A stretch of 43,914 nucleotides of DNA from Candidatus Staskawiczbacteria bacterium (lineage in GTDB: Bacteria > Patescibacteriota > Minisyncoccia > Minisyncoccales > Staskawiczbacteraceae). The DNA is taken from NCBI GenBank assembly GCA_023245195.1, contig JAHFKU010000003.1, forward strand, positions 1 to 43,914. Direction: 5' to 3'. The stretch's first letter is position 1; each line of letters begins with the position of its first letter. Below are positions 7,046 through 37,465 of this stretch, in pieces. Position numbers and translations under genes: made by a program. The notes below the pieces were generated by a model. It did no database searches, was not told where the DNA came from, and saw nothing but the letters and a program-made list of their open reading frames with translations.

Positions 7046-8056
7046 ATGTCAAGTATTTTACATAAAACTCCTGATGCCCAAGATCAAATCCTCGATTCTT
7101 CGTTAAGGCCGAAAAATTGGGCTGATTATGTTGGCCAAGAAAAAATCAAGGAAAATATCCAGATTATTTTAATGGCCGCCAAAAAGCGCGGTCAATCCCC
7201 CGACCACTTGCTGCTCTATGGCAATTCTGGATTAGGAAAAACCACCCTGGCCCAACTAGTGGCCCTGGAAATGGGCAAAAAAATCCGTATCACTTCGGGC
7301 CCAGCCATAGAAAGAGCTGGGGATCTGGCCGCCATTTTGACTAATCTACAAGAAGGAGATGTGCTATTTTTAGATGAAATCCACAGGATGCACAAAACCA
7401 TTGAAGAATATATTTATCCAGCCATGGAAGACTATAAATTAAACTTGATATTGGGCAAAGGGCCGATGGCTCGAACCATGGAATTACACTTGCCTCGCTT
7501 TACCTTAATTGGAGCCACCACCAGGCCCGGACTACTATCTACCCCACTAAGAAATCGCTTTGGCGGCACCTTCCAGTTGAATTTTTACAAACCCGAAGAC
7601 ATTGAAAAAATTATTGAACGATCAGCTCGGCTTTTGGGAATATCTATCCACCCTGATGCGGTGCAAATTATCGCCAAGCGATCGCGATTTACTCCGCGGG
7701 TAGCCAATCGCCTCTTAAAAAGAGTCAGAGATTTTGCCCAAGTAAAAAATCAAGGCGTAGTAACTAAAGAAATCGCAAAACTTGCCTTAGAATCTTTAGA
7801 AGTTGATCACCAAGGACTTGAACCAGGCGATATTAAAATTTTATTGGCCTTAATTGAAAAATTTGACGGCGGACCAGTAGGGCTTCAATCGCTAGCCGCG
7901 GCCGCCCTTGAAGAAGAAGACACTATTTTGGACATGTACGAACCTTATTTAATGCAACTGGGATTTTTAGAAAGAACGCCCAAGGGCCGCGTGGCTTCAA
8001 AACTGGCCTACGAACATTTGGGATTGAAATACAATAAAACAAATAACCTAATTTGA
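7046..8056 (+). CDS. ruvB: Holliday junction branch migration ATPase RuvB
   Basis: SLRPK, GNSGLGKTTLA, ITSGPAIER, LFLDEIHR, FTLIGATTR, YEPYLMQLG. Confidence 0.98.
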   Translation: MSSILHKTPDAQDQILDSSLRPKNWADYVGQEKIKENIQIILMAAKKRGQSPDHLLLYGNSGLGKTTLAQLVALEMGKKIRITSGPAIERAGDLAAILTNLQEGDVLFLDEIHRMHKTIEEYIYPAMEDYKLNLILGKGPMARTMELHLPRFTLIGATTRPGLLSTPLRNRFGGTFQLNFYKPEDIEKIIERSARLLGISIHPDAVQIIAKRSRFTPRVANRLLKRVRDFAQVKNQGVVTKEIAKLALESLEVDHQGLEPGDIKILLALIEKFDGGPVGLQSLAAAALEEEDTILDMYEPYLMQLGFLERTPKGRVASKLAYEHLGLKYNKTNNLI

Positions 8057-8206
8057 AATTTACAATTTACAATTTGAAATCAATTCCTGCCTGCCGGCAG
8101 GCAGGTGAAAAGAATATGAATTTGAAATGATTAAAACCGTCAAAATTTCGCTTTGTCGAAATTTTGACACTTACTTTTTCAAATTTAAAATTTCAAATTT
8201 CAAATT
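8050..8206. repeat. 7-nt-periodic fold-back element between ruvB and yebC with nested palindromes
   Basis: Left arm (aatttga/aatttac)n, right arm (ttcaaat)n; nested cctgcctgccggcaggcagg 8086-8105 and gtcaaaatttcg..cgaaattttgac 8139-8168. Confidence 0.85.
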
Positions 8207-8213
8207 CACTATT

Positions 8214-9598: not shown

Positions 9599-9612
9599 AG
9601 GGAAAGATAAAA

Positions 9613-9757
9613 TAATTTACAATTTGAAATTTACAATTTGAAATCAATTTAAAAATATTACAATTTGAAATACTAAAATACGTTGCCTTTTCAAATTAAA
9701 ATATTGTAAGATTTAGTATTGAATTCAAATTTCAAATTACAAATTTAAAATTCAAAA
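9613..9757. repeat. 7-nt-periodic fold-back element in the 5' leader of the acidic ORF
   Basis: aatttacaatttgaaatttacaatttgaaatcaat...ttcaaatttcaaattacaaatttaaaatt; same subfamily as 8050..8206. Confidence 0.85.
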
Positions 9758-9758
9758 C

Positions 9759-12420: not shown

Positions 12421-12421
12421 A

Positions 12422-15391: not shown

Positions 15392-15433
15392 GGTGTGTTT
15401 TGGGTTAAACCTTAGACGCACAATAATGTTAAA

Positions 15434-15562: not shown

Positions 15563-15697
15563 ATGAGCTTTACTTATAAGCCAAAAAAGAAAAAAAGGAA
15601 AAGAACCCATGGTTTTTTGGTTCGCATGCAGACCAAAAAGGGCAAGCAGGTTATCCAAAGGAGAAGAGCCAAAGGAAGAAAGAAGCTCTCAGTATAG
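15563..15697 (+). CDS. rpmH: 50S ribosomal protein L34 (below ORF-track cutoff)
   Basis: [44 protein letters not shown]; canonical position. Confidence 0.98.
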
Positions 15698-15702
15698 TTA
15701 TT

Positions 15703-15821
15703 AATTTTCAATTTCTAATTTTCAATTTTCATTAAATTTTTAATACACTAATTTTCAAATACGTTTAGAAATTAAAGCAATTAGATATTTAATAGAAATT
15801 AGAAATTATGAATTAGAAATT
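15703..15821 (+). repeat. Empty 7-nt-periodic fold-back element (four-helix-bundle subfamily) between rpmH and rnpA
   Basis: (aattttc/aatttct)n-attaaat..aaa tacg ttt..atttaat-(agaaatt)n; near-identical to the reverse complement of 36526..36657. Confidence 0.9.
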
Positions 15822-15829
15822 CAGGGAAG

Positions 15830-16168
15830 GTGTTGCCAAAACCAAACCGTTTAACCAAAAAAAAGGATTTTGATCTGGTCTTTAAAAAAGGGGAAAGCGT
15901 AAAAAACGGCTTTTTAATATTTAAAATGTTAAAAAGTAATTTGCCAGAAAGCCGTTTTGGATTTGTGGTGAGCCGCAAGGTTTCTGGCAAGGCGACGGTA
16001 AGAAATAAGGTTAAAAGAAGATTGCGAGACGCAATCTTTCTTAGATTAAAAGAATTGAAAGGGGTTATAGATGTTGTTGTTATCACGTTACCGGGAATTG
16101 AAAAAAAAGAGTTTTTAGAAATACAAAACATGGTGGGAGGCGGGCTTAAAAAGTTAAAAATAATATAG
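15830..16168 (+). CDS. rnpA: Ribonuclease P protein component
   Basis: RLTKKKDF, RFGFVVSRKV, KATVRNKVKRRLR. Confidence 0.97.
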   Translation: MLPKPNRLTKKKDFDLVFKKGESVKNGFLIFKMLKSNLPESRFGFVVSRKVSGKATVRNKVKRRLRDAIFLRLKELKGVIDVVVITLPGIEKKEFLEIQNMVGGGLKKLKII

Positions 16169-16332
16169 GGAGTAATCACGAATATACTAATACGTTCAAA
16201 TATACCAATCTTACAAATATACGAATACGAGATTGCTTTTGCGCCTGCGGGCGCCTCGCAATGACGGCGGCAAGATTTGTATATTTGTAAAATTCGTATA
16301 TTATCGTAAATTTGTATATTCGCGACTACTCC
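16169..16332. repeat. 8-9-nt-periodic fold-back element between rnpA and yidC with a nested AGATTGC..GCAATGAC repeat
   Basis: Basal stem ggagtaatcacgaatata/tatattcgcgactactcc; acgaatat/acaaatat units versus atttgtat/attcgtat; nested repeat 16230-16266. Confidence 0.85.
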
Positions 16333-16338
16333 AATTAA

Positions 16339-17052
16339 ATGTTTGGATTTATAGTTAATTTTTTTAAAATCTTCTTATACTTTCCGCTTTTTAATGCGCT
16401 GGTTTTAATATACGACTATTTTCCCGGGCACGACTTTGGCATAGCCATTATTGTTCTTACGATTATTATAAGAGTTATTATTTATCCCCTTTCGGTAAAA
16501 GCCCTACAATCCCAAAAAGCCCTTTCAAGCCTTCAACCTCAATTAAAAGAGATTCAGGAAAAATACAAAAACGACAAAGAAAAACAAGCCAAAGAAACCC
16601 TAGAACTGTATCGCAAAGAAAAAATCAACCCTTTTAGTGGGCTACTGTTGGCTTTAATCCAGCTTCCCATATTAATTGCCCTTTATAATGTGTTTTGGAA
16701 CGGCTTAAAGCCCGAACAGCTTAGTAATTTATATGGCTTTGTCGTAAATCCGGGGCATATTAATCCAGTATTTCTTGGTCTTGCAGATTTGTCTAAGCCA
16801 AACGTGATTTTTGCTATTTTGGCCGGTATTTTGCAGTTTTTCCAGACAAAAATGTTAACACCTAGCCCCACCAAGGGCTTGGCGGCCAATGACATGTCTT
16901 CGATGATGCAAAAGCAAATGCTGTACTTTTTCCCAATCATAACCATAGTCATTCTTTTAAAACTGCCTTCAGCGCTAGGATTGTACTGGATAGCAAGCGG
17001 AATATTTTCTATAATCCAGCAGTATTTCATCCTTAAAAAGAATAAAAAATAA
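16339..17052 (+). CDS. yidC: YidC/Oxa1 membrane protein insertase (short form)
   Basis: GIAIIVLTIIIR, LQPQLKEIQEKYK, NPFSG..LIQLPILIALY, PSALGLYW. Confidence 0.95.
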   Translation: MFGFIVNFFKIFLYFPLFNALVLIYDYFPGHDFGIAIIVLTIIIRVIIYPLSVKALQSQKALSSLQPQLKEIQEKYKNDKEKQAKETLELYRKEKINPFSGLLLALIQLPILIALYNVFWNGLKPEQLSNLYGFVVNPGHINPVFLGLADLSKPNVIFAILAGILQFFQTKMLTPSPTKGLAANDMSSMMQKQMLYFFPIITIVILLKLPSALGLYWIASGIFSIIQQYFILKKNKK

Positions 17053-17519
17053 TGGAGGAACAAGAATTAAAAACAATTAAAGAAACCATAGAAAAGTTCC
17101 TGCAGAAAATGACGGTGGATGTTTTGACGGTGGAATTAAACTCATCATTGGTAAACAATAAAGAATGTGTGAATGTGGATATTCACATAAAAGAGCCGCA
17201 GGTTTTAATTGGGCAAAGCGGCCAAACATTGTTTGAATTGGGGCGCCTGTTAAGGATTATTTTAAATAAAAAGCTCCAGAAAGATTTTTATGTGGATTTA
17301 GATATTAACGATTATAAAAAACAAAAATTATTGTATTTGAAAAAAATGGCGGCGGATTTGGCGCGCGAAGTGGTGGTAACCCAAAAAGAAAAAATATTGC
17401 CTCCCATGCCTTCTTATGAAAGAAGAATTATTCATAGCGAACTTGCCGGCCGGCAAGATATTATTACCCAAAGCCATGGGGAGGGGGTAGATAGGTCGGT
17501 GATTATTAGTCCCAAATAA
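17052..17519 (+). CDS. jag: Jag/EloR-like KH-R3H RNA-binding protein
   Basis: LIGQSGQTL (KH), PMPSYERRIIH (R3H); follows yidC. Confidence 0.88.
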   Translation: MEEQELKTIKETIEKFLQKMTVDVLTVELNSSLVNNKECVNVDIHIKEPQVLIGQSGQTLFELGRLLRIILNKKLQKDFYVDLDINDYKKQKLLYLKKMAADLAREVVVTQKEKILPPMPSYERRIIHSELAGRQDIITQSHGEGVDRSVIISPK

Positions 17520-17526
17520 TTTTTTG

Positions 17527-17644
17527 GTCATTGCGAGCGGCGGCCGTAAGGCCGCCGCAAGGCAATCTGCACACCGTCATTGCGAGACTCGTCCGCAGAC
17601 GAGGCGTGGCAATCTAGATTACTTCGTAAAAACTCGCAATGACG
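17527..17644. repeat. Cluster of three GTCATTGCGAG..GCAATCT palindromic units
   Basis: Units at 17527-17568, 17576-17615 and inverted 17616-17643; the first two carry different internal hairpins. Confidence 0.88.
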
Positions 17645-17660
17645 AATAATTATGAAATCC

Positions 17661-17694
17661 ATCCCAAATTACTACGATCGTAGTAATTTGGGAT
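17661..17694. repeat. 34-bp perfect palindrome
   Basis: atcccaaattactacga|tcgtagtaatttgggat. Confidence 0.92.
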
Positions 17695-17706
17695 AGAGAT
17701 GATGAC

Positions 17707-17740
17707 CAAAAAGACAAGCTTACTTAAGCTTGTCTTTTTG
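17707..17740. terminator. Bidirectional terminator-like hairpin
   Basis: caaaaagacaagctta-ct-taagcttgtctttttg between convergent genes. Confidence 0.7.
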
Positions 17741-17763
17741 TTTGTGCGAAACTTATCAAAGAT

Positions 17764-20700
17764 TTACGGTACGATCGGGAAAATGTCCATTCTGAATATT
17801 TTTCTATTTTGGTCTACAATGTCATAATTGGCTAAATCTTGTATTTTGCCTGGGGAAATATAGCATTGGGCACCATCAGGGAGCCCGTTTTTACTATAAA
17901 GAATGGTTAAAAAGTTGCCACTAGGCTCTATAGCTCGGGTGCATGGATAGGCAGCACCAGTGGGATCGCAATTTCTGTCTGCTAAACAAGCGTCACCGTG
18001 GGAAGAATTTGGAAAAGAACATATTCCACTGGTGGGACTAGTCCCTGGACCTAGTAATTGCACTTCTTTATTGCATTCACCTTTAATGCCATTAATACTG
18101 CACTCAGTATCTAGTTCGCAAGGTTTCTGTGCGGGAAGAATAACGCATTTTTTAGTTTCAGAACACCATCCAGATGGCGCGCCACAATCAGCATTGGTGC
18201 CATTAGCATTATTATCAACCGAACTGCAGGGTGTATTAGAGAAAATTGGTATTTTGTAAGCCGTTATACATTTTAGGGTTTTTTTATTGCAATAACCAGA
18301 ATTTTGAGTATTAGGAAGTTGCGCGCAAGTGTCTTTTCCTGCAGCCGCCTTATCTGTGCCATAGTATTTTGGGTCAGTTAACAAGTCATCAGGCCCACCA
18401 TTATATTTAAAATGTTCTCCGGGGACACCATTATTGTATTCCCCGTTCTCTGTCATATAATATCTGCCAATAAAGGCAAATTTTGGGCCAACTAGCCTAT
18501 TTCCTTGGACTCGTGGTTCGCCCTGTGTTGCTGGGCCACCATCTTCATATATGCTTACCCCACTTCCAGAAAAGTCTGAATTATTAGCTTCAGCGGATTT
18601 TGAATTCAATCCTTTTATAATATAAATTGACGTAGCGGGGAACTGTTCGCATTGGCTGGTGTTTCCAGTGCCACCTGATCCACCGCCTCCACTACTACCC
18701 GAACCACCACTGCCTCCTCCAGAACCACTGCCGCAATCTGCAGGACAATTTGTTGAATCTTCATCGGGGTAATCACATGTACCATCGCCACATGTTACAC
18801 CAGGAACATCTTCTGCCAATATTGCTCCATTAAATCCGCTTAATATTGATGCAGGGTACAAGACTGCACCCTGCTTCGCTTCACTTGCTAAAACGAGGGG
18901 CAGATTATTTTTTATGCTAACCTCATTGTTTGGAGCTTGTTCATTTTCGGGGTATAAGCTCGTGCCCTGGTTCGTAAATGGTAGGATTCCTAAAAATGAA
19001 GCCAGTGGAGGGTTTTGGTTATTAAATGGCAGGGCGCCAGTATCAATTATGCTACAAGGTTGATCAAGCCGGCATTCGTCAAGTTCGGCTACCCCCGGTC
19101 TTTTATTTGCAACTAACATACACCTATTACCCGAAATATCTGGATCTGTTGATGCCTTGCAAATGGTGTGGAAGTTTGGATTAGAATTAACTTGGCAATC
19201 CGGGAAATAAGTGCACTGGTCGGTACCTGGTCCAAATACTAAGTCGCACGTATGATCCATAAAATTACATTCACTATGAAGGTAACCTGTTCCACATCCT
19301 CCAGAGGAAGGATTGCAATATCCATATCCATGGTAACCAGCTAAACATTGACCATCGATGTCGCAAGAGAATCCGCAATCACTGGCGCTAGTACAAGCTA
19401 CTCCACCATTATTATTTCCAAGCCGACATTGATTAGTTGCAATGTCACAAGAATAACTAGTGGTAAATTGTTGTGGGCAATCAGTGTCAAATTCGCACCA
19501 GGGCAGTTGTGGGCCTACTGCGCCCGGAACACAGGTTCCAGCCAAACAATGAGATGTACTAGTATCTATTTGACCAGAACAAGTTTGCGCGTCACAGCTA
19601 GTTCCCGATAATCCAGGAACACATTTTTGTGTGCTGGTGTCACAAGTTATTCCTGTTTTATTTGAAAGGAAACAGGTTGCTGGATCGCAAGTAAGTCCGG
19701 GTAATCCAGGAACACATTGTTTTAAATTAGTATCACAGGTCATTCCCGATCCTACTACTGCAGTAGAACATTGTTGGGCATCACAAGTCAGCCCAGGTAA
19801 CCCAGGAACACATTGTTTCGTGCTAGCATTGCATGTTATTCCCCCTGCCACTGCAGTAGAACATTGTTGGGCATCACAAGTCAGTCCAGGTAATCCAAGA
19901 ACACATTGTTTTGTAGCGGTGTTACAGGTCATGCCTCCTGTTGGAGGTGGCGGCGGCGGTGGAACCGGGACATTGCAAGGGTCGCCGCTTTTTGAGGTGC
20001 TACTACAGCCGTCATTGGTGTATGAACTTGTTCCAGCGGGTCCGCAAATACCACCACTGCCACCCTTTGGCGCACTGCACTTAAAGCCAGTTGAGGGTGG
20101 TAGCTCACAAGGACTTCCTAGTAAGCATGGATATCCATTTTGGAAATAAAACTTGTCGGTAGTACATTGATTATTTGAGAAATTACAATAACCTTTAGGG
20201 CCATTGCAATCAGTCACTCCAGGAGTACATTTTATTCCACTAGTTCCAGTTTCCGAGCATTGAGAATATGGGTTAAATAGGCTTGTAGTAGTGCAATAGC
20301 TTTCGGGTTCGGGTGGTGTGCAGGCGGGATTGCCTATTCCACCATTCGCATTGTTATTGCTGAAGTTGCAAGGAATGCAGTCTTCAAGGGCGGGATCACA
20401 ACTTTCATATACGCATTGCTGGGTGTCGGGGTCGCAGTAGCCGCCGCATTCGGTATCGCTCGTGCAATCTGCGCCAGTGCCGTTGGGGCTGCAACTAGGT
20501 GTAGGGCTAAATTCATCGCATTTGCTACCGGCACAGTCGATATTGTTAGTGCAAGATTGTTCGCCAACACCATAAGGACTACAGGTGGGCTCAGGGGCAA
20601 AGGGGTCGCAGTGGGCGCCACTGTCGATATTGCAATCATCGTCGTTGTTGCAACTTATACAGTCTTCTGTTTCGGGATCACAAGTGGATTCCGCCTCGCA

Positions 20701-21981
20701 AGTATGACTTTCGGTGTCACAATAGCCTCCTCGATTGTCTGGTGGAAGGGGGCAGTCGTTTACATCTTTGCAGGGTTCGCCAGTACCTTCGGGTCCACAA
20801 AATGCGTTACCATTATCGTCCACACCACACTTAGAGGGCTCTTCACAACTACTACCGACGTTAGTGCAAGAAGCAAGTTCTGTATAAGATTTGCAGTGTC
20901 CGACGGTTTGGCTTTCTGCACTTGCACCATCGCAATAATAATCACTGCCACCACCACAGTCGCTGTGCTCAATGCAGTATTGACCAGTGTAATCTTGAAT
21001 ACATTTATTGTTTAGGCTATCGCAAACTCCGGAATTTGGTTGATCTATTGGTGGCAAAGTGTTGGTGGGTTTGCAACCAGGGCCGGTGATAGACACGTTA
21101 ATGCATTGGTCTTCGGCACTAAAATTATTAAATGGCTCACTGCAGGTTCCTTGATTATTTGGGTCGGCGGTTAAGACAAATCCATAATGAGGGTCATTGT
21201 CGCCGGCTCCATTAACAATTAAGGCTGAAGTTACTTTTCTTTCAAATTCTTTGGGCAGGGTGCCGGTGTTGGTGATGACTTCGGTGCTAATGCCAGTACA
21301 GCCCGCTCCTTTAAAAAGGTATACACCTGGCTGTTTATAGGCTGTTTTGTAAGAGTATGTGCCAAAGATGTCTGTTGATTTTCCGCACTGCAATGTCACA
21401 ACGTCTGCATCTGGATCATTGTCATCTAGGCCTGGCAGCGAATATCTATAAACTAAAAGATCCGGGCTGTTTGTCGGGTTTTTGCAGATATAAACAAGTT
21501 TATTAAATCCTTCTAGTAAATTTGAGGTATCGGCCTGGTAAGGAGGGGCTACAATAAAATTATCAGAGCTATTAACCAAATAAAGTCCCGCTCCTACGGT
21601 TGTTGTGAGTGCGGGCTGGTTTGGATCTATAAGTTGGGGGTTAATCGTACTTAACAGAGTTATCGAAAACATCAAAAGTACAATGCCTAAAATGGAGCCG
21701 AAAATTCTTTCTCGCGCTGCGCCTTGCGAGGCCGGATTTCCCGCTGATGCCAAAAGCGTAATGCCGGCAATGACGATAGAAAGTACGCCTACGATTCCGG
21801 CAAATCCCACGGCTAAGTAAAAGAAGTAGGCGATAAAATCAGGTAATGTGGAATTTTTGTCTAGTTTAATGCCGCCAATAGTCGGATAGTCATTTTCAAG
21901 CGCGAAAACCGTTTGACTAACAGTCAAAAACAATACAAGAACAGCCAGAAATAATAGCGGGTATTTGAGTTTTTTGGGCAT
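17764..21981 (-). CDS. 1405-aa surface protein: signal peptide, TrbC/VirB2-like pilin domain and long Cys-rich repeat region
   Basis: N-terminal VFA signal, two TMs with IAGITLLASAGNP..ARERIFGSILG (CPR pilin-like), dozens of C-x(5-6)-C modules, CGDGTC..CPADC motif, Gly/Ser and Pro linkers. Confidence 0.8.
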   Translation of the reverse strand: MPKKLKYPLLFLAVLVLFLTVSQTVFALENDYPTIGGIKLDKNSTLPDFIAYFFYLAVGFAGIVGVLSIVIAGITLLASAGNPASQGAARERIFGSILGIVLLMFSITLLSTINPQLIDPNQPALTTTVGAGLYLVNSSDNFIVAPPYQADTSNLLEGFNKLVYICKNPTNSPDLLVYRYSLPGLDDNDPDADVVTLQCGKSTDIFGTYSYKTAYKQPGVYLFKGAGCTGISTEVITNTGTLPKEFERKVTSALIVNGAGDNDPHYGFVLTADPNNQGTCSEPFNNFSAEDQCINVSITGPGCKPTNTLPPIDQPNSGVCDSLNNKCIQDYTGQYCIEHSDCGGGSDYYCDGASAESQTVGHCKSYTELASCTNVGSSCEEPSKCGVDDNGNAFCGPEGTGEPCKDVNDCPLPPDNRGGYCDTESHTCEAESTCDPETEDCISCNNDDDCNIDSGAHCDPFAPEPTCSPYGVGEQSCTNNIDCAGSKCDEFSPTPSCSPNGTGADCTSDTECGGYCDPDTQQCVYESCDPALEDCIPCNFSNNNANGGIGNPACTPPEPESYCTTTSLFNPYSQCSETGTSGIKCTPGVTDCNGPKGYCNFSNNQCTTDKFYFQNGYPCLLGSPCELPPSTGFKCSAPKGGSGGICGPAGTSSYTNDGCSSTSKSGDPCNVPVPPPPPPPTGGMTCNTATKQCVLGLPGLTCDAQQCSTAVAGGITCNASTKQCVPGLPGLTCDAQQCSTAVVGSGMTCDTNLKQCVPGLPGLTCDPATCFLSNKTGITCDTSTQKCVPGLSGTSCDAQTCSGQIDTSTSHCLAGTCVPGAVGPQLPWCEFDTDCPQQFTTSYSCDIATNQCRLGNNNGGVACTSASDCGFSCDIDGQCLAGYHGYGYCNPSSGGCGTGYLHSECNFMDHTCDLVFGPGTDQCTYFPDCQVNSNPNFHTICKASTDPDISGNRCMLVANKRPGVAELDECRLDQPCSIIDTGALPFNNQNPPLASFLGILPFTNQGTSLYPENEQAPNNEVSIKNNLPLVLASEAKQGAVLYPASILSGFNGAILAEDVPGVTCGDGTCDYPDEDSTNCPADCGSGSGGGSGGSGSSGGGGSGGTGNTSQCEQFPATSIYIIKGLNSKSAEANNSDFSGSGVSIYEDGGPATQGEPRVQGNRLVGPKFAFIGRYYMTENGEYNNGVPGEHFKYNGGPDDLLTDPKYYGTDKAAAGKDTCAQLPNTQNSGYCNKKTLKCITAYKIPIFSNTPCSSVDNNANGTNADCGAPSGWCSETKKCVILPAQKPCELDTECSINGIKGECNKEVQLLGPGTSPTSGICSFPNSSHGDACLADRNCDPTGAAYPCTRAIEPSGNFLTILYSKNGLPDGAQCYISPGKIQDLANYDIVDQNRKIFRMDIFPIVP
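19573..19938 (-). repeat. Four ~30-codon intragenic tandem repeats
   Basis: G(M/I)TC(N/D)xxxKQCV(P/L)GLPGLTCDxxxC four times, with DNA-level similarity. Confidence 0.9.
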
Positions 21982-22049
21982 AACGCTAATTTAAAATTAA
22001 ATTAGTTAATAATAGCATAATTCATTTTCTAATAAGATGTGGATAACTC

Positions 22050-22478
22050 TTATTTTTTAGTTGTTGCCGGCTTGGTTGAAGTTTTCGCTGACCCTTCTTT
22101 TGGTGATTCTTTAGTTCCCTCTTCTGCAGGCTTTGAACTGCTTTCTTGGGTTGCTGTTCCTCCACCATAACCTCTGGTGTATACCCAGGTGACAAAAAAC
22201 CCGTCAATTGCCCATGTAATTAATGTGGTAAAAATTCCGCCGTCAAACCAAATTTCAAGAATACCCATGCTCAAAGTGACTATATAGCAAGACCCGGCGA
22301 TGGTCAGCATTAACATCCCTTCCGGTCCCATTAAATTTCCTTTCATGGTCTTCCAAACAAGTATAATATTTCCGGGCCATAAAAAACCAATGCCTGGCGT
22401 CCATTGGGGCAATGACCAGCCAAGTCTTTTTATTATTCCTCTTGCGACTTTTTGTATTGTGCCCTGTGATTCTGCCAT
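22050..22478 (-). CDS. Hypothetical membrane protein in T4SS-like cluster (start likely ATG 22478)
   Basis: Hydrophobic helices plus charged tail; the longer TTG-start extension is encoded by a GC palindrome. Confidence 0.6.
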   Translation of the reverse strand: MAESQGTIQKVARGIIKRLGWSLPQWTPGIGFLWPGNIILVWKTMKGNLMGPEGMLMLTIAGSCYIVTLSMGILEIWFDGGIFTTLITWAIDGFFVTWVYTRGYGGGTATQESSSKPAEEGTKESPKEGSAKTSTKPATTKK

Positions 22479-22501
22479 GTTCTCGAATTTTAAATTATCA
22501 A

Positions 22502-22527
22502 GCCGCGCGCCCCGCGGGGCGCGCGGC
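22502..22527. repeat. GC palindrome centred on CCCG|CGGG
   Basis: gccgcgcgccccg|cggggcgcgcggc. Confidence 0.9.
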
Positions 22528-22532
22528 AAAAA

Positions 22533-24341
22533 TTAGCCATTCTCTTTTAATCTCTTCCTCGCCTCCTTAATTTTCTCCACTTCCCCGGGGCTGGTCGTAA
22601 TAATCTGATCTTCGGTGTAGCTGGCTTTGACGGCAATGGCCACGTGTTTTTTGCCGGCAAAAAAGAGGCCCTCTCCCACGCTGGCTGACAACAATAATTC
22701 CTTTTCTTGTTCGGTTAAATTAAATACTTTTTCTACGGCTTCAATGCTGGCGGTAGATTGTTTTAATAATAATTGCAATGATGAATTGGTGATAATGGCT
22801 TTGCCATAGCTTGACCCCATAAAATCTTCCACGTCTTGAGTAATAGTGGTAACTCCCAGCCAGTATTTGCGGCCCCGTTTTACCAGGCCGAATAAAAACG
22901 AAGCGCCATCGGGAGTTTGCATGAGCCACCAAGCTTCGTCAACAACTAAAATTCTCTTTTTGATGTTGGTCCGAATAATATTCCAAATGTAGCGCATAAC
23001 AATAAACAAAGCTATCGGTCTTAGTGATTCTTCCATGTCGCGGATGCCAAAGACAATAAAGGGTTTATCCATGACAATGTTGGTTTTTTGGTTAAAAAAA
23101 CTAGAAAAAGTCCCGGTCGTAAATTTTTTAAGTCGTGTGGCCATGGATTCAGCTCCGGTGATGTTTTCTAAAATTTCGGCAAAATCAGATAAGAGCGGAA
23201 TATTTTCCTGCCACGAAGCCGGATTTGACTGGGCGGTAATATCGCGCACGGCGTAAGTTTCAGTTAGGGCTTGGTCTAAAATGCTGTCTTCTTCGGCGGT
23301 CAATCCCCCAAGCATAATTCTTAACAGTCCCACTAGGTTAATAATGTTTGAGCGTAAAATGTCTTGCGGATCTTCTTCGGGGCCCGGGGTTGGCAAATCA
23401 AACGGATTAATATGGATGTCCGAAGTCAAAGAAATTTTGAAAAAATCCCCGCCAACTCCATTGGCTAAAAATTCATATTCGTTTTCCGGGTCAACGACAA
23501 TCACATCAATCCCCCGCATCAAATAGCGCAGGATTTCTAATTTTATGGCATAAGATTTGCCCGCGCCGGATTTAGCAAAGACCACCATGTTATAGTTTTC
23601 CAACGTAAACCGGTCAAATAAAATAAGGGAATTGTTGTGCCGATTGATGCCGTATAAAATTCCTTGGTTTGAACTTAGGTCAAAAGAAATAAACGGAAAG
23701 GCGGTGGAAAGCGGTTCGGTGTCCATGGGGGTGTTGACCTGCAGTAAATCTAGGGCATAGGGGCTGGTAGAAATAAAGCCCTCTTTTTGTTTAAATAGGG
23801 CCGGTTTGATGTAAATCAAGCGCGATTCAAAAATGGATCGCAACGTAGTTTCAGTTTCTTTGATGGCTTCGGGGGTTTGTTCAAAAATGGTAATATACAA
23901 GCTAAATCGAAATATTTTTTCTTGGGCGGTGATGATTTTGTCGCGCAGGTTTTCAATGTCTTGGTAAGAAGTTTCAAGGGCCGGGTCGCGGATGAGGCCC
24001 TTTTCCTCCCGTTCCATTAATTCAGAAGAAACTTGAGTGACTTTAGATCGGAGCTTTTTTAAAATCATGGTGCTGTTAATGGGCTGGATGAAAAATGAGA
24101 TGTCCATGGGAACATTTAAATTGATGGCAGGCGAAAGCCACCCGGTGTTTAAATACCGCGGATAGGAAAAAATAAAAAAGGATTTGGCAATTTTTTCTCC
24201 TAGTTTTATATAGTCTTGGGTGATGCCAATGTAGGGAGGAGCAATGATATCTTTGATATTAATATCATCTGATGCAAATATTTTTTCATCAACATCCTCC
24301 ACCTTTTTTTTGTTACTGAATAAATTAAAATCAAAAACCAT
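22533..24341 (-). CDS. VirB4/TraC-like ATPase
   Basis: Walker A AKSGAGKS, VVDPENEY, INPFDL, Walker B VVDEAW, KRGRKY, ITQDVEDF. Confidence 0.92.
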   Translation of the reverse strand: MVFDFNLFSNKKKVEDVDEKIFASDDINIKDIIAPPYIGITQDYIKLGEKIAKSFFIFSYPRYLNTGWLSPAINLNVPMDISFFIQPINSTMILKKLRSKVTQVSSELMEREEKGLIRDPALETSYQDIENLRDKIITAQEKIFRFSLYITIFEQTPEAIKETETTLRSIFESRLIYIKPALFKQKEGFISTSPYALDLLQVNTPMDTEPLSTAFPFISFDLSSNQGILYGINRHNNSLILFDRFTLENYNMVVFAKSGAGKSYAIKLEILRYLMRGIDVIVVDPENEYEFLANGVGGDFFKISLTSDIHINPFDLPTPGPEEDPQDILRSNIINLVGLLRIMLGGLTAEEDSILDQALTETYAVRDITAQSNPASWQENIPLLSDFAEILENITGAESMATRLKKFTTGTFSSFFNQKTNIVMDKPFIVFGIRDMEESLRPIALFIVMRYIWNIIRTNIKKRILVVDEAWWLMQTPDGASFLFGLVKRGRKYWLGVTTITQDVEDFMGSSYGKAIITNSSLQLLLKQSTASIEAVEKVFNLTEQEKELLLSASVGEGLFFAGKKHVAIAVKASYTEDQIITTSPGEVEKIKEARKRLKENG

Positions 24342-24348
24342 GTTTGTT

Positions 24349-24816
24349 AATTTCTAATTTTCAATTTCTAATTTCTATTAAATGTATAATTTCTAATTTT
24401 CAAAAACTTTCTTGGCATCAATAGTATTAGTAATTTTTTGGAATATAAGATGAAATTCATGAGCTTCCTGCCAAAGATTTCTTATAGGCTCTTTTAGTTC
24501 TGTGTTATTTTTAGCTAACATTCTTAACCAATATTTTGTCTCATTCGCCTCTTTCTTTGAAATATATATTTTATTTCTAAAGTCCTTTTTAGAACTTGAA
24601 GCGTTTGCTTCGTAGTAATTTGCACCAACAGACGTGGCAGCTCTCGTCAATTGGATAATAATATTTCTATTAATATCATCCCTTTTTATATTTTTAACAA
24701 ATTCTATGATATTCTCGGCAAAGACTGCGGATCTTTCTTCTAGGTCGTAAGCTTTTTTGTTTTGAAATTGGTTCATTTAAAATTTAATAGAAATTAGAAA
24801 TTAGAAATTGAAAATT
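24349..24816 (-). mobile_element. Candidate cassette: four-helix-bundle gene enclosed by inverted 7-nt-periodic arms
   Basis: Arms 24349-24407 (aatttct/aattttc)n and 24759-24816 (agaaatt)n overlap the stop and start of the gene. Mobility is inferred. Confidence 0.6.
24393..24776 (-). CDS. Four helix bundle protein (23S rRNA intervening-sequence protein/Avd-like family)
   Basis: YDLEER, QLTRAATSVGANYYEA, SKKDF, ISKKEANETKYWL. Confidence 0.93.
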   Translation of the reverse strand: MNQFQNKKAYDLEERSAVFAENIIEFVKNIKRDDINRNIIIQLTRAATSVGANYYEANASSSKKDFRNKIYISKKEANETKYWLRMLAKNNTELKEPIRNLWQEAHEFHLIFQKITNTIDAKKVFEN

Positions 24817-24821
24817 CGTAG

Positions 24822-25496
24822 CTATTTCAGTAGTTCCGGTGAAATCTCCGGGCTGTATCCTATTTCCGCCTGATCCGGGTGGTGCAGTGACCAAAAGAGT
24901 TCAATTAATTCAGGGGTGGTCAGTGGAATGCTGTCTAAGCCGCATCGCTTAAGCCCCAGCGCTAAAAATTCCATTCTTTGCCAAAGCTGGTTTTTGCATT
25001 TTTCAAATTCTTCATCGGTTATTTGTGATTTTTGGCCCGGGTTTTCAGATTTCTTACCGCCGAATAATCCTGAAAAATTAAATTGGCGGGTTACGGCTCC
25101 CATTCCCAGCACCGCGGTTAAAGCATAGGGCACGACAATGTAAAAGTTTTTGGTCATCACGGCATCGCCCTGCACCAAATCTTGAATGAACTGGATGTAA
25201 GAATTAGTCTGTATTTTTAGCAATTCATTCGTTTGCTGTTGTTGCAGGCTTTTAAGATCGTCTAAGTAGGGGGTGATGTTGATTTTCCTTGATTGGACAA
25301 TAATCTGGCAGGGAAAATCCAGCGAATTTAAAAAATTCTGGAAGGCGTAAATAATGGCTGATTGGTCGTCGTTTGACTGTAATGCAAAATTCACCGAAGA
25401 GATCATTAAAACCCCGCGGATGTCGTTGTTTTTTAATATCAAAACCCCTTCTTTGATGTCTTTGAGTTCTAAAAATTCTTGAGTGGTTAGATCCAT
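24822..25496 (-). CDS. Conserved T4SS-like cluster protein found between PrgI and VirB4
   Basis: TQEFL..IKEGVLILK, SSVNFAL, FLNSLDFPCQIIVQSR; position in the cluster. Confidence 0.75.
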   Translation of the reverse strand: MDLTTQEFLELKDIKEGVLILKNNDIRGVLMISSVNFALQSNDDQSAIIYAFQNFLNSLDFPCQIIVQSRKINITPYLDDLKSLQQQQTNELLKIQTNSYIQFIQDLVQGDAVMTKNFYIVVPYALTAVLGMGAVTRQFNFSGLFGGKKSENPGQKSQITDEEFEKCKNQLWQRMEFLALGLKRCGLDSIPLTTPELIELFWSLHHPDQAEIGYSPEISPELLK

Positions 25497-25503
25497 TGTT
25501 TTG

Positions 25504-25748
25504 AACGAATTAACACAAATATGTTTAACGAATCAACACGAATCACGAATTACGCTTTTTGTATCAAGGGTATCCCACTTTTTCTAAACTCTTCCTCTAA
25601 AGCTTTTTGATAAATTTGCTCTTTTAGTCCCCTGCCGTATTTGTTAAACACATTATAAACTGCTCCCTGAATTTTATAAGAAAGCTCTGCTTCTAAAAAG
25701 TTTTTATTCGTGATTCGTGTTGATTCGTACATTGTGTGGAAATTCGTT
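25504..25748 (-). repeat. Inverted periodic arms enclosing the GxxExxY remnant
   Basis: 23-bp perfect inverted pair acgaatcaacacgaatcacgaat 25528-25550 / 25706-25728 with imperfect outward extension. Confidence 0.9.
25550..25732 (-). pseudogene. Truncated GxxExxY protein
   Basis: ELSYKIQGAVYNVFNKYGRGLKEQIYQKALEEEF carries G-x-x-E-x-x-Y; only 60 aa, and the PD-(D/E)xK-like C-terminal half is missing. Confidence 0.85.
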
Positions 25749-25750
25749 AT

Positions 25751-26140
25751 TTATTTCTTCCGGTATTCCACCATCCCCTTTACGCTCTGTAATTTGCTAT
25801 CCTCGGGTTTGGGCGGACCAGCAGTTATGGTGTCCTTCGTCTTAAACGGATATTCTGTTTGTTTTTTCTTCCAGACATAATTTTTTGATTTTGTCGAAAA
25901 CATCATATAGTTTAAGAGCAGCGCAATGACCGACATGTCGTCAATTTTGATAAACGCTACCAGAGCCACAAATAATGCTACGAGCGCCGATAAAATGATA
26001 AACAGCCAGAAAGGCAGCAGATAATAGCTTCCAATGCAAATAACACCGCCCCCAACCAGCCAAAAAAACTGTCGGAAGGTTAAAAAGGAAACAATCTTTC
26101 CTTCGGCTTCTATGAATTGTGGAATGGGATATTGAGCCAT
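25751..26140 (-). CDS. PrgI-family membrane protein
   Basis: QYPIPQFIEAEGKIVSFLTFRQF, two TMs, YVWKK. Confidence 0.88.
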   Translation of the reverse strand: MAQYPIPQFIEAEGKIVSFLTFRQFFWLVGGGVICIGSYYLLPFWLFIILSALVALFVALVAFIKIDDMSVIALLLNYMMFSTKSKNYVWKKKQTEYPFKTKDTITAGPPKPEDSKLQSVKGMVEYRKK

Positions 26141-26152
26141 GTTTTTAAGCTC

Positions 26153-26331
26153 TGAACTGTGAAACTCTCGTTTTAAAAATTACTTTTCGGGTCTTTTCTC
26201 CAAATCTGGGCTGGAAATTCGCAATAATTTTAAGCCAGAAGCCTCCGGCTAAGCCTAAAAATTCTATCACATTTCTATCTCCAAATTTGGACAAAATACC
26301 TCCGAGGGGTTTGCTAATTCACAGCTTCTAG
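26153..26331. repeat. ~180-bp imperfect fold-back in the prgI leader sharing a core with 10049..10207
   Basis: ctgtgaa/ttcacag, tccaaatctgg/ccaaatttgga arms; core cgcaataatttt..aaaattctatc. Confidence 0.7.
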
Positions 26332-26412
26332 ACGTTTATCTGATATATTTGTCTATTATATCACATTAGAAATCAAGTAAATAATCGAGATATTAACAAC
26401 TGTATAAGTATT

Positions 26413-26440
26413 TTGTAATTTGAGGATTTTGTGCTACAAT
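26413..26440 (+). promoter_or_regulatory. sigma70 promoter for the TA pair, 6 nt before ATG 26447 (leaderless)
   Basis: TTGTAA-N16-TACAAT with TGn extension. Confidence 0.6.
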
Positions 26441-26446
26441 AAAGAC

Positions 26447-26692
26447 ATGAAACAAGCAATAAAACCGATGAAATTTAGACAGACGCTATTTTGGGATGTT
26501 AACCCTAAAAACATAGACGTTAAAAAAAACGCCCGATATATTATTGAGCGTGTTTTAGAGTTTGGAGAACCAGGCGAAGTAGGATGGGTTTTGCGTTATT
26601 ATCCAAAACACACTATTAAAAAAGTTATTGGTCTTCCGCGCGTTCAATTGAGTCCCAAATCAAAAGCCCTATGGTCTCTGATTTTGAAATAA
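26447..26692 (+). CDS. DUF6922-like small protein, putative antitoxin partner
   Basis: LFWDVNPKNID..YIIERVLEFG..LSPKSKALW; overlaps the AbiEii gene. Confidence 0.8.
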   Translation: MKQAIKPMKFRQTLFWDVNPKNIDVKKNARYIIERVLEFGEPGEVGWVLRYYPKHTIKKVIGLPRVQLSPKSKALWSLILK

Positions 26693-27351
26693 AACAAAAT
26701 ACTGCTAAGCTTTTTTTTAATACTTTGCCAAAAGATGCTGTCTTAGCGTTAAAAAAGTGTTCACAGATGGATTTTCTTTTGCGCGATAAATGGTATTTAG
26801 CAGGAGGCACCGCATTGGCTCTGCAGTCTGGGCATCGCCGGTCTTACGATTTAGATTTTTTTACAGAAAACAAAACTTTTGATGAAAAGGGCGTTGAAAA
26901 AATATTATATGAGCAAGGAGAGTGGATTACCAATAACATAAGTGAAGGAACAGTATTTGGCATACTTTCAAAAACAAAAATGAGTTTTATTGCTTATCCC
27001 TTTTTTACGCCAGCTGAGAAAATATGTAAGTTTGGCACAGTTTCTTTGTTGGCTATTCCCGATATTGCTGTGATGAAAATCATAGCAATATCTCAGCGAG
27101 GCAAAAAACGGGATTTTTTTGATTTATATTGGATATGCCAAAATATAGTACCGTTGCACGAGAGTATTTTGAAAATAGATAAGCAGTACAATATACGTCA
27201 AAATCTTACCCATATTTTAAAAAGCTTGGTATATTTTGATGACGCAGAAACGGATCCGGAACCCGAAATTTATTTTAAAGCAACCTGGAAAGAGGTTAAA
27301 AAGTTTTTTATTAAAGAAATTCCGCAAATTGCAAAAAAAATAATAAAGTAA
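26671..27351 (+). CDS. AbiEii/AbiGii-family nucleotidyltransferase toxin
   Basis: YLAGGTALALQSGHRRSYDLDFF, MKIIAISQRGKKRDFFDLY, KSLVYFDDAE. Confidence 0.92.
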   Translation: MVSDFEIKQNTAKLFFNTLPKDAVLALKKCSQMDFLLRDKWYLAGGTALALQSGHRRSYDLDFFTENKTFDEKGVEKILYEQGEWITNNISEGTVFGILSKTKMSFIAYPFFTPAEKICKFGTVSLLAIPDIAVMKIIAISQRGKKRDFFDLYWICQNIVPLHESILKIDKQYNIRQNLTHILKSLVYFDDAETDPEPEIYFKATWKEVKKFFIKEIPQIAKKIIK

Positions 27352-31595: not shown

Positions 31596-31702
31596 AATTT
31601 GAAATTTACAATTTGAAATTTGAAATCAATTTGAAATGTGTAAATTTGAAATTTGAAAAATTTGAGACTGTTTCTGTCCCGCGCGCCCGCGGGCGCGGGG
31701 GA
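31596..31702. repeat. Single 7-nt-periodic arm (aatttga)n plus CCCG|CGGG palindrome
   Basis: aatttgaaatttacaatttgaaatttgaaatcaatttga...; tccc[g]cgcgcccg|cgggcgcg[g]ggga 31677-31702. Confidence 0.85.
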
Positions 31703-34986: not shown

Positions 34987-36519
34987 TTATCTTGCATACT
35001 CCACCACCCTGTTTTCTCTGATAACCGTTACCTTAATTTCTCCTGGATATTTTAATTCTTCTTCAATGTTGGCGGCGATTTGGCGGGCCATTTTTGAAAC
35101 GCCCAAATCATCTACTTTGTCAGCTTTCACAAATACTCTAATTTCTCTACCAGCCTGAATAGCATAAGCTTTTTCTACCCCTTCAAATTTATTAGCAATG
35201 CTTTCCAACGCACTTAATCGTTGCAGATAGTTTTCCAAGGTGTCTTTACGGGCTCCCGGGCGCGAAGCCGAAATAGAATCAGCCACAATCACAATAGCGC
35301 CTTCCAGTGAATCCACCGGAAAATCTCCGTGGTGGCTTCTCATGGCATGGATAATTTCTTCTTTTTCACCGAATTTTTCCAAAATCTTAATACCAATATC
35401 AATGTGGCTTCCTTCCATTTGCTGGTCAAGCGCCTTTCCAATATCATGAAATAATCCTGCTCGCTTGGCGACTGGCGCATTAGCTCCTATTTCTTCAGCA
35501 ATCGTTTCGGCAATTAAGGCTACTTCCATGGAATGTTGAAGTACGTTTTGGCCGTAGCTGGTCCGATAGTATAATCTGCCCAAAATCTGCACTAGCTTTT
35601 CGTTAACTCCCAAGATATTCATGTCATACAGCGTTTTTTCTCCGGCGTCTTTGATGACTTTGGAAATTTCTTGCTTGGCTTCTTCTACTTTTTCTTCAAT
35701 TTTGGCAGGCTGGATTCGGCCATCCTGAATTAATTTATCCAAAGCCATTTTGGCAATCTGGCGCCGCACGGGATTAAAGCAGGAAATAACGACTGAATCG
35801 GGCGTATCATCAACAATCAATTCAACGCCCGTGATTTTTTCGAAAGCCTTAATATTACGTCCCTCTTTGCCGATGATTCGGCCCTTAATATCTTCACTGG
35901 CAAGGTGAAGAGTAGTCGTGGAAAGCTCTAGCGTATGATTTACCGCGCATTTTTGGATAGCGAGCGTGACAATTTCACGAGCTTTGGTGGCCAAAGCGTC
36001 CTGCCCGGCCTGTTCTACTTTTCTCATCCTTTCCAAAATGTCTTTTTCGGAGTCTTTTTCTACTAAACTCAATAATTCTTTTTTAGCGTCTTCCCGCGAA
36101 AGATTGGCGACTTTTTCGAGCTTGGTTTCAGCTTCAAGGCGCAATTTGTCTAGATCTTCTTTAACCGTTTTTAGTTTTTCTACGTTTTTGCCTAACTCAT
36201 CTTCTTTTTTCTCAAAAGCGCCGATTTTTTCTTCCAGTAATTTTTCTCGATCTAAAATAAGCTGCTGGGCTTTTAAAAATTCCCTTCTTCGTTCATCAAT
36301 TTCTTTTTGGGATTCGGCCAGAATTTTTGAAGACTGGGTTTTGGCATCTTTGACCAATTTTTCAGTTTCTTCTTTGGTTTCCTGAACCTTTTTTACCAGT
36401 TTTGCTTCCAGTGAGCCGGCCCGCTGCTTGGCCAGTGATTGGCGGGTGTAATAGCCGATAATGCACCCCAGCGCTAATGATATAAATCCAGCGATAGCGA
36501 TAATAATGATTTGATCCAT
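34987..36519 (-). CDS. rny: Ribonuclease Y
   Basis: TM, coiled coil, KH (KGRIIGKEGRNI), HD (RTSYGQNVLQH..HDIGK), AIQAGREIRV. Confidence 0.98.
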   Translation of the reverse strand: MDQIIIIAIAGFISLALGCIIGYYTRQSLAKQRAGSLEAKLVKKVQETKEETEKLVKDAKTQSSKILAESQKEIDERRREFLKAQQLILDREKLLEEKIGAFEKKEDELGKNVEKLKTVKEDLDKLRLEAETKLEKVANLSREDAKKELLSLVEKDSEKDILERMRKVEQAGQDALATKAREIVTLAIQKCAVNHTLELSTTTLHLASEDIKGRIIGKEGRNIKAFEKITGVELIVDDTPDSVVISCFNPVRRQIAKMALDKLIQDGRIQPAKIEEKVEEAKQEISKVIKDAGEKTLYDMNILGVNEKLVQILGRLYYRTSYGQNVLQHSMEVALIAETIAEEIGANAPVAKRAGLFHDIGKALDQQMEGSHIDIGIKILEKFGEKEEIIHAMRSHHGDFPVDSLEGAIVIVADSISASRPGARKDTLENYLQRLSALESIANKFEGVEKAYAIQAGREIRVFVKADKVDDLGVSKMARQIAANIEEELKYPGEIKVTVIRENRVVEYAR

Positions 36520-36525: not shown

Positions 36526-36657
36526 GAATTTCTAATTCTTAATTTCTAATTTCTATTAAATATCTAATCGCTTTAATTTCCAAACACCATGGTTTTAGAA
36601 ATTAGCAGGATTAAAAATTTAATGAAAATTGAAAATTAGAAATTGAAAATTTAATAA
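36526..36657 (-). repeat. Empty 7-nt-periodic fold-back element (four-helix-bundle subfamily) upstream of rny
   Basis: Reverse complement aligns closely with 15698..15822. Confidence 0.9.
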
Positions 36658-36770: not shown

Positions 36771-37355
36771 TTACTTGGCTCCGGTTATGACTTCATCAAT
36801 TAAGCCGTATTTTTGGGCTTCCAAAGCGGTCATATAAAAATCCCGGTCGGTATCTTTTTCAACCATGCTCATTGACTGGCCGGTGTGGCTAGCCAAAATC
36901 TCGTTGATCTTACCTTTGATTTTTATAATCTGCTTGGCAGTAATTTCAATGTCTGCGGCTTGCCCTTGCATGCCGCCGGCAACTTGGTGGAGCATGATTT
37001 CGGCGTTGGGCAAAGCAAAACGCTTGCCTTTGGTGCCACAAGCCAAAATAACCGCTCCCATCGAAGCTGCCAGGCCGATGCAAATGGTAGAAACCGGGCA
37101 TTTAATAAACTGCATGGTGTCATAGATAGCCAGTCCCGCTGTAACCGAACCTCCAGGGCTGTTAATATAAAGCTTTATGTCTCTTTTTGGGTCTTTTGAG
37201 ACCAAGTACAGCATTTGGGCAATTACCACATTAGCATTCATATCGGTAACCGGCCCAGCCAAAAAGATAATACGCTCTTCTAAAAGCCTAGAAAATATGT
37301 CATATACGCGCTCACCGCGTTGTGATTTTTCGATAATCGTTGGTACGATAGGCAC
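36771..37355 (-). CDS. clpP: ATP-dependent Clp protease proteolytic subunit (start likely GTG 37355)
   Basis: [35 protein letters not shown]. Confidence 0.98.
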
Positions 37356-37360
37356 AATTG

Positions 37361-37465
37361 TTAATTCAAAATGCAAATATCAAACTGCAAAATAACAGTT
37401 TAAAATTTAAAATATCGCGAAGCGATAACAAAATTTTGAATTTTGATCTTTTAATTTTACATTTA
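37361..37465. repeat. 7-nt-periodic fold-back element between tig and clpP
   Basis: (tcaaaat/gcaaaat)n versus (attttga)n with a central tatcgcgaagcgata hairpin. Confidence 0.75.

Follow-up and report, generated by a model that had tools for sequence, protein, structure and literature searches.

Positions 24349-24816 of the DNA analysed here raise the question of why a small gene for a four-helix-bundle (FHB) protein should lie between two protein genes, enclosed by inverted arms that are built from tandem units of 7 nucleotides (nt). The window (the whole stretch examined, 43,914 nt of Candidatus Staskawiczbacteria) is contig C11 of the genome labelled G000, which comprises 787 kb in 41 contigs and has 39% G+C. 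The answer preferred here, with a probability of roughly 0.7, is that the region is the gene-bearing copy of a foldback-type selfish element of the intervening-sequence (IVS) type, which resides in mRNA junctions and has offspring similar to MITEs (miniature inverted-repeat transposable elements). The plan of the element consists of inverted arms of about 4-5 tandem 7-nt units, a short inner stem and an FHB (S23p/PF05635) gene in the loop. Sequence comparison indicates that elements of this plan form a class which extends across many phyla and which was not previously described as such in the literature searched, and that they are gained, lost and replaced at orthologous junctions.

The gene-bearing cassette is made up of the following parts.

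24782..24816, minus strand: 5' outer arm, aattttc aatttct aatttct aatttct attaaat, five 7-nt units
24760..24781, minus strand: 5' half of the inner stem, holding the ATG and the first codons (MNQFQN); the arm pair reaches 24760
24393..24776, minus strand: FHB gene, 127 amino acids, PF05635/TIGR02436
24384..24405, minus strand: 3' half of the inner stem, comprising the final codons (VFEN), the stop codon and a spacer
24349..24383, minus strand: 3' outer arm, atttaat agaaatt agaaatt gaaaatt agaaatt

The heptamer series on the sense strand, on both sides of the gene, is exactly as given in a preliminary description of the locus, and the coordinates agree with its placement of the cassette base 5 nt from the stop codon of the upstream gene and 7 nt from the ATG (24341) of the VirB4-like gene downstream. 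A repeat search returned inverted arms at 24349-24405 and 24760-24816 (57 nt, 77% complementary), the complementarity of which extends 13 nt into the 3' end of the open reading frame (ORF) and 17 nt into its 5' end. As complementarity enters both ends of the ORF, MNQFQN and VFEN plus the stop are encoded by the inner stem and lie outside the heptamer arrays; the earlier statement that the arms encode the ends of the protein holds for the inner stem. In the minimum free energy fold the stretch 24760..24781 pairs with the 3' end of the FHB ORF. A two-heptamer pattern (up to 2 mismatches) occurred 23 times in the window, compared to 2.9 expected, and 0 of 100 shuffles reached 23.

The 127-amino-acid protein matched PF05635 (E 3.3e-17, 63.1 bits, curated cut-off 33.8) and TIGR02436 (E 2.8e-22, 79 bits, cut-off 24), and its nearest solved relative was PDB entry 2RLD (E 9.3e-13), which, like a second relative (2GSC), contains 5 chains. 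In an alignment of the family that included the window protein (A1), Q43, S50, N54 and E57 were invariant and R46 nearly so; the motif stretch of the window protein is QLTRAATSVGANYYEA, in which the G of the motif GxxRxxxSxxxNxxE, as quoted in PMC3936711, is not kept. PF05635 was the sole family matched in a Pfam search of the gene-bearing unit, which is therefore without a transposase domain, in line with the expectation that no classical transposase would be present. Rfam at gathering thresholds matched 0 families within the window.

PF05635 genes were identified in 23 of the 24 other genomes of the genus (1-9 matches each), and this genome has three. Flanks were counted as complementary when they scored above 95% of mismatched flank pairs. 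Among relatives (29 of 30 FHB loci, one short pseudogene being omitted), complementary flanks were found for 24 of 29 FHB genes, with a median score of 20.5 compared to a mean of 8.4 for mismatched flanks, and 7 was the dominant period in 44 of 58 arms; as kin are not independent, such within-genus counts overstate the number of events. A multi-phylum set was also assembled (76 usable loci of the best 80 among 591 relatives, 4 being cut by contig ends), in which 62 of 76 FHB genes had complementary flanks, 54 of 76 had period 7 in both arms, and period 7 dominated 118 of 152 arms, compared to 18 of 152 after shuffling. The link between FHB genes and periodic arms anticipated in the preliminary description was thus borne out in relatives and across phyla alike. 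The set covered cultured Bacteroidota, with typical copies in cultured Flavobacterium, Sphingobacterium and Adhaeribacter strains, as well as metagenome-assembled genomes labelled Acidobacteriota, Nitrospira, Elusimicrobia, Omnitrophota, Desulfobacterota, Clostridia and Proteobacteria.

The heptamer unit is specific to the element (GAATTAT, TAGGGTT, CAACCAA, TGACGGG and others). The 5' and 3' consensus heptamers were at most 2 bases apart in 54 of 58 elements, compared to 24% for pairs of different elements, and the heptamer distance between elements dropped from 3.6 to 0.8 with rising identity of the FHB protein. The background is low: among the 767 genes of this genome, 4 combined complementary flanks (score of at least 12) with a period of 7 in both flanks, and FHB genes accounted for 2 of these.

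The arms also occur with no gene between them, as in the following copies in the window, which belong to two families of arms.

15701..15822, plus strand: gene-less family-A copy in the junction of rpmH (stop 15697) and rnpA (GTG 15830); RNA fold z -3.0
36526..36654, minus strand: gene-less copy of family A in the junction of clpP (36771..37376) with rny (34987..36519); RNA fold z -5.0
8047..8213, strand not assigned: gene-less family-B copy with arms AATTTGAAATTTACAATTT... and a nested GC-rich palindrome
9612..9758, strand not assigned: gene-less family-B copy; RNA fold z -3.7

The two family-A copies had been reported earlier as sharing one orientation relative to transcription. Both are real (88% identical); in the genome they face opposite ways, but they are oriented alike with respect to the genes around them (rpmH-rnpA on the plus strand, clpP-rny on the minus strand). 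The shared orientation is not fixed genome-wide, as gene-less copies of family A were 9 sense and 3 antisense and those of family B were mixed. A census of the 787-kb genome identified 170 period-7 arrays and 41 inverted heptamer-array pairs; nearly all of the pairs occupy stop-to-start junctions with few spare bases, and some even provide the stop codon. The pairs fall into several families.

Family A: unit AATTTCT; about 15 gene-less copies and one gene-bearing copy in this genome
Family B: unit AATTTGAAATTTACA...; 11 copies without a gene, about 165 nt long, of which the window holds two (8047, 9612)
Family C: unit TTGACAA; short hairpins
Other families: various units; a few copies in this genome

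Gene-less copies retain the outer arms, the ATTAAAT linker and the inner stem, and this inner stem corresponds to the first and last 15-20 nt or so of the ORF region in the gene-bearing copy. As they hold both ORF ends, the gene-less copies evidently derive by internal deletion from the gene-bearing element. That these derivatives share their arms with the gene-bearing copy of the same genome agrees with the pair of autonomous and non-autonomous elements proposed in the preliminary description. The gene-bearing form of family B was not in this assembly and was found at the VirB4 junction of a congener (G041). A family-B 24-mer (AATTTGAAATTTACAATTTGAAAT) was present with 0 mismatches in all five species tested, and it also occurs exactly at window positions 31596-31619. 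To one side of the loop, family-B hairpins often bear a nested and perfect palindrome rich in G+C, such as CCTGCCTGCCGGCAGGCAGG. TTGACAA-type hairpins were seen at C10:3035, C23:11723, C31:11784 and C32:38028, 96990 and 100749 of this genome, with arms only 1-19 nt apart. Long complementary flanks lacking period 7 (scores 30-56) were seen at C1:425-1219, C28:10201-12273 and other loci, pointing to other palindromic junction repeats in the same genome.

The junction that holds the cassette, between the gene for a 224-amino-acid protein and the VirB4 gene, was compared in 23 genomes of the genus, in which the following states were found.

FHB gene: 9 of 23 genomes
GxxExxY gene: 2 of 23 genomes
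Other small ORF: 1 of 23 genomes
Decayed 301-nt remnant with nested arms: 1 of 23 genomes (G024)
Hairpin only, 87-123 nt: 4 of 23 genomes
Nothing, 6-16 nt: 6 of 23 genomes

Full, empty and absent states, the comparison of which had been suggested beforehand, were all found, and well-supported sister species disagree: four sister pairs in the tree of flanking proteins differ in state (support of 99-100 in the Shimodaira-Hasegawa-like approximate likelihood ratio test, SH-aLRT), and at least 5 changes between occupied and absent are required. The identity of the FHB proteins also departs from that of the flanks, being 37% compared to 80% in the sisters G041 and G018, 82% compared to 67% in the distant genomes G001 and G004, and 81% compared to 75% in G007 and G003, which are not sisters and both carry ATCAATT arms. 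The ATCAATT-type array gave 76 matches in G007 and 1-13 in four other genomes. At the rpmH-rnpA junction of the 23 genomes (7 of them scored by eye from the sequence), 8 carried periodic hairpins, among which no fewer than 6 types of arm were represented, 11 were short and 4 held something else; in four genomes (G000, G007, G014 and G024) the arm type at this junction was that of the genome's own gene-bearing copy at the VirB4 junction (decayed in G024).

Further observations were made at these junctions. In the ORF-less 301-nt junction of G024 (L038 2172-2474), CTAATT-type arms enclose CCCAAT-type arms, a nesting which suggests that one element was inserted into another. When a periodic hairpin precedes rnpA, the start codon was GTG or TTG in 7 of 8 genomes, while the short junctions that could be parsed had ATG (7 of 7); the difference could stem from common descent or be caused by the hairpin. 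Contigs from four DNA runs of one study, mapped to 7800-26800, break at the cassette arms. A joint of 24391 to 24788 in these contigs was considered as an empty allele and rejected, since it carries the loop of another copy in this genome (C8:5673) and hence reflects cross-mapping, which is evidence neither way.

The FHB proteins are evidently under purifying selection, the ratio of nonsynonymous to synonymous substitution (dN/dS) being 0.03-0.14 in 8 of 14 pairs (in the remaining 6, dS was saturated). The clearest pair has arms identical at 45/49 and 47/50 positions and a proportion of synonymous differences (pS) of 0.73, its arms being better conserved than synonymous sites; in the other pairs the arms were 70-85% identical in sequence of low complexity. 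Decay was also observed, as 6 of 30 FHB copies in relatives were truncated or carried in-frame stops. The full element folds as RNA with -89.6 kcal/mol (z -3.8), while gene-less copies gave z -3.0 to -5.0. Among 94 usable elements, read on the sense strand, the stem positions that do not form Watson-Crick pairs comprised 301 transversion pairs, 119 A:C and 85 G:U. Conservation of an RNA helix by wobble or compensation was dropped as the principal interpretation, as G:U pairs were not in excess of A:C pairs. This lack of excess, together with the presence of gene-less copies in both orientations, favours a spreading step at the DNA level, and the arms look like DNA-level terminal inverted repeats, that is, two copies of one recognised sequence.

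These results also bear on the best surviving of the alternatives, which is nevertheless considered unlikely: that the hairpins are host regulatory RNA, serving operon-internal processing or stability (for instance as RNase III sites that uncouple cistrons), that the FHB protein is a domesticated RNA-binding factor, and that nothing is mobile, all divergence having occurred in place. Such a role would suit copies lying between co-directional genes and flush with stop and start codons, an operon resembling a type IV secretion system that is occupied in the majority of species in the genus, selection on the protein, conservation of the arms, significantly stable folds and the presence of an RNase III gene in this genome. 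It is at odds with sister species that differ between absent, hairpin-only and full states, with the discordance between FHB and flank identity, with at least 6 unrelated arm types at the rpmH-rnpA junction, with both orientations among gene-less copies and the missing excess of G:U pairs, and with the truncated or stop-bearing copies described above. Near-identical copies in tens per genome, and the occurrence of the FHB-arm unit within rRNA and cas operons in published work, also argue against it.

A second kind of gene was found in cassettes of comparable form, one of which lies close to the first.

25504..25748, minus strand: second cassette, in the junction of PrgI and the 224-amino-acid gene, with CACGAAT-type arms and a truncated GxxExxY/PDDEXK_3 ORF

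The ORF (25550..25732) encodes 60 amino acids, corresponding to the first third of such an ORF, and the match (TIGR04256, E 2.9e-9; PF13366, E 6e-10) continues through one TAA. An intact GxxExxY gene elsewhere in the genome (C23:7455-7793) is enclosed by perfect 35-nt inverted arms of TACGAAT-type units (GGCTACGAAATACGAAT...), and four gene-less hairpins with these same arms occupy neighbouring junctions of the same operon (C23:6080-11320), giving a second set of full and empty copies. Complementary flanks were found for 25 of 27 GxxExxY genes of the genus. The arm units (ACGAAT, ACGCAGA, ACGCTGA and similar) are spaced 7-10 nt; a period-7 consensus fails on them, and the arm sets of FHB and GxxExxY genes were not separated by the consensus measure. 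In five species a GxxExxY unit, including its arms, was found in frame within recG (L161 181-2823; L163-L166), inserted between the DEQHRFG and MTATPIPR helicase motifs with the frame open over 866-928 amino acids.

It was also considered whether the arms are hairpins of the repetitive extragenic palindrome (REP) type, moved by a classical enzyme encoded elsewhere (for example a Y1 transposase of the IS200 type or of the REP-associated tyrosine transposase (RAYT) type), with FHB and GxxExxY genes caught in the loops. A Y1_Tnp match above cut-off is indeed present in this genome (C32:68751-68984, in a 250-amino-acid ORF), and gene-bearing copies are far outnumbered by gene-less ones, family B having 11 gene-less and 0 gene-bearing copies in this assembly. 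The Y1 ORF (C32:68487-69239), however, has GC-rich hairpins of its own (GCGAGGTATGACCTCGC) on its flanks and, in one place, within it, rather than heptamer arrays, and looks like a separate REP-like system. The arm-gene association across many phyla and the way in which arm sequence follows FHB protein identity are equally hard to reconcile with such passengers, and by eye GxxExxY units differ from FHB arms, though the sets could not be told apart by their consensus; the explanation is regarded as improbable. Just as improbable is that the FHB gene is a free-standing, homing-type gene spread by recombination at conserved junctions, with the heptamer arrays as secondary, slippage-prone repeats, for although FHB and flank phylogenies are discordant at one conserved junction, no target duplication was seen, the number of heptamers is reported to vary between Coxiella strains (PMC4990558) and direct rather than inverted arrays flank a Pseudanabaena gene, it leaves unexplained the tens of gene-less copies at unrelated junctions of one genome, the matched arm sequences on both sides and the conservation of arms above synonymous sites.

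If the cassette is a foldback-type, IVS-type selfish element, as preferred here, its spread would occur at the DNA level, and the repeated units of both arms would be recognised by the element's own oligomeric FHB protein, with roughly one arm unit per subunit (crystals of solved relatives contain five chains). Upon transcription of the operon, the arms would pair into a long stem rich in A and U, which RNase III could cut as it does in rRNA IVSs, and by analogy with these such cleavage is likely. The cut would separate the cassette from the neighbouring cistrons and, since the junction is not part of a coding sequence, it would be tolerated.

A number of points weigh against this interpretation. 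The FHB protein has no known catalytic domain, movement was not observed, and the genome also encodes the Y1 (IS200/RAYT-like) transposase; the correspondence of five subunits with five units may be no more than numerology. Neither a target-site duplication nor a target was visible when filled and empty junctions were compared, the junction bases being few and the species too diverged to decide, and replacement at conserved junctions could be due to homologous recombination between species rather than to transposition. Several of the arm comparisons involve AT-rich sequence of low complexity, in which identity is inflated. Not all arms conform: 14 of 58 arms in relatives have a period of 8-10, 34 of 152 in the multi-phylum set have another dominant period and the flanks of 14 of 76 FHB genes are not clearly complementary. 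Among five FHB genes on plasmids, a period-7 array lay beside the gene in 5 of 5 (on at least the 3' side), and clearly inverted arms were found in 1 of 5 (Riemerella). The FHB gene on a Pseudanabaena galeata plasmid, located between cas6 and cas4, has long heptamer arrays in direct rather than inverted orientation, with (AAAGCTA)n on its upstream side and (AAAGCCA)n on its downstream side.

Of the systems already known, the nearest is the S23p-type IVS of rRNA, a kinship that the preliminary description had proposed and that is closer than it claimed. PMC4990558 describes the 23S IVS of Coxiella as having a 28-bp terminal stem with a decaying S23p ORF in the loop, heptameric repeats upstream of this ORF in numbers that vary between strains, and a poor ribosome-binding site for the ORF; RNase III cuts the stem. 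The same source cites the homopentameric structure of Xanthomonas S23p and an older proposal that IVSs are selfish or mobile. The cassette resembles the S23p-type IVSs of Coxiella, Leptospira and others in having a sense PF05635 ORF inside a hairpin of terminal inverted repeats, and resembles that of Coxiella in its heptameric repeats on the ORF-proximal side of the stem and in decay of the ORF. Unlike these IVSs, it lies in mRNA between two protein genes and not in a helix of 23S or 16S rRNA (helix 25 or 45 for S23p-type IVSs), and it has gene-less families in tens of copies and a second cargo family. PMC3936711 reports FHB genes located within cas operons (as between cmr3 and cmr2), and the family is found in inserts of 16S and 23S rRNA in the candidate phyla radiation (preprint).

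MITE-like features are also apparent. ERIC and Correia elements are imperfect palindromes of about 100-170 nt; their copies are numerous, occupy transcribed junctions and can have either orientation. MITEs of this type are deletion derivatives of a longer, gene-bearing element. In the present case terminal inverted repeats are likewise common to long and short copies, and the short copies keep both ends and are numerous and dispersed; unlike in MITEs, the long copy has no recognised transposase (PF05635 being the sole Pfam match) and each arm repeats a short unit in tandem instead of having a unique terminal sequence. Long inverted arms of tandem short units, with many copies lacking a coding centre, are known from the Foldback (FB) transposons of eukaryotes, the likeness being one of form only, given the different domain of life and the different unit lengths. 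Short hairpins that multiply in intergenic DNA recall REP/RAYT systems, although the hairpins flanking the Y1 gene (GCGAGGTATGACCTCGC) differ from the dispersed heptamer arms, which track FHB and GxxExxY genes.

Avd, the accessory protein of diversity-generating retroelements, is a nucleic-acid-binding pentamer and a distantly related four-helix-bundle protein. An FHB paralogue in this genome matched the Avd model NF033474 below cut-off (E 3.9e-5), and the window protein does not reach that model. No reverse transcriptase or template/variable repeat pair was seen beside the loci read, in the course of which no dedicated search was made.

Intergenic tandem heptamers have been published for Xanthomonas (GGGAATC) and Nostoc (GGGGAYT) in PMC4692102, and arrays of TAACTGA for Beggiatoaceae, Cyanobacteria and Bacteroidetes in PMC4679880; 70-75 pairs of the Xanthomonas arrays are convergent, i.e. 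inverted (PMC4692102). These arrays resemble those found here in being intergenic, in consisting of 7-nt units and in often terminating shortly upstream of a start codon. Neither main text contains the words 'four helix', 'S23' or 'intervening'; the supplementary tables of both papers, which list genes beside heptamer arrays, may bear on the matter. A link between published heptamer arrays and FHB elements is a lead, backed by the five plasmid examples only. A literature search that covered neither supplements nor subscription journals returned no general link between FHB genes and periodic arms and no gene-less families, the remark on heptamers in PMC4990558 being the nearest.

The genes on either side of the cassette are as follows.

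24822..25496, minus strand: upstream neighbour, 224-amino-acid protein similar to the VirB4 N-terminal domain and to TrsD
22533..24341, minus strand: downstream neighbour, VirB4-like ATPase with a TraG P-loop domain (PF19044, E 3.2e-29)

The cassette was considered as the cause of a split in VirB4 and this was ruled out, as the 224-amino-acid gene, which was found in 23 of 26 genomes of the genus (open frames of 216-248 amino acids), is a separate ORF in all 23, even in the six that have no insert. An interpretation of the elements as terminators or promoters was also rejected, there being no consensus sites inside any element; 5 terminator-like sites (a G+C-rich stem and a T run) were found in 15500-26300, none of them inside an element.

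A broader proposal can be put forward tentatively, and may well prove wrong: S23p pentamers and GxxExxY nuclease-fold proteins could be the sequence-reading parts of an undescribed mobility system that lacks a DDE, HUH, serine or tyrosine recombinase, each lineage reading its own unit (about one per subunit). Its elements, and the arrays that they leave, could be the source of the intergenic heptamers of many bacteria, among them those of cyanobacteria, Xanthomonas (GGGAATC) and Beggiatoa (TAACTGA), of rRNA IVSs and of in-frame inserts such as that in recG.

PF05635 is among the commonest small bacterial proteins of unknown function. The IVSs of rRNA, FHB genes in cas operons and intergenic heptamers have been published as separate, unexplained facts and are here brought into one picture, in which a unit composed of a gene and its tandem-repeat arms enters gene junctions, rRNA helices and, in its GxxExxY form, recG in frame, and decays into gene-less hairpins that multiply. 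The comparison made here shows that periodic arms occur generally across phyla. As the hairpins fill a notable share of the junctions in small Patescibacteria genomes, they must shape operon transcripts and break assemblies. If the FHB protein does read the repeats, it would represent a new form of programmable nucleic-acid recognition and possibly a new route of DNA movement.

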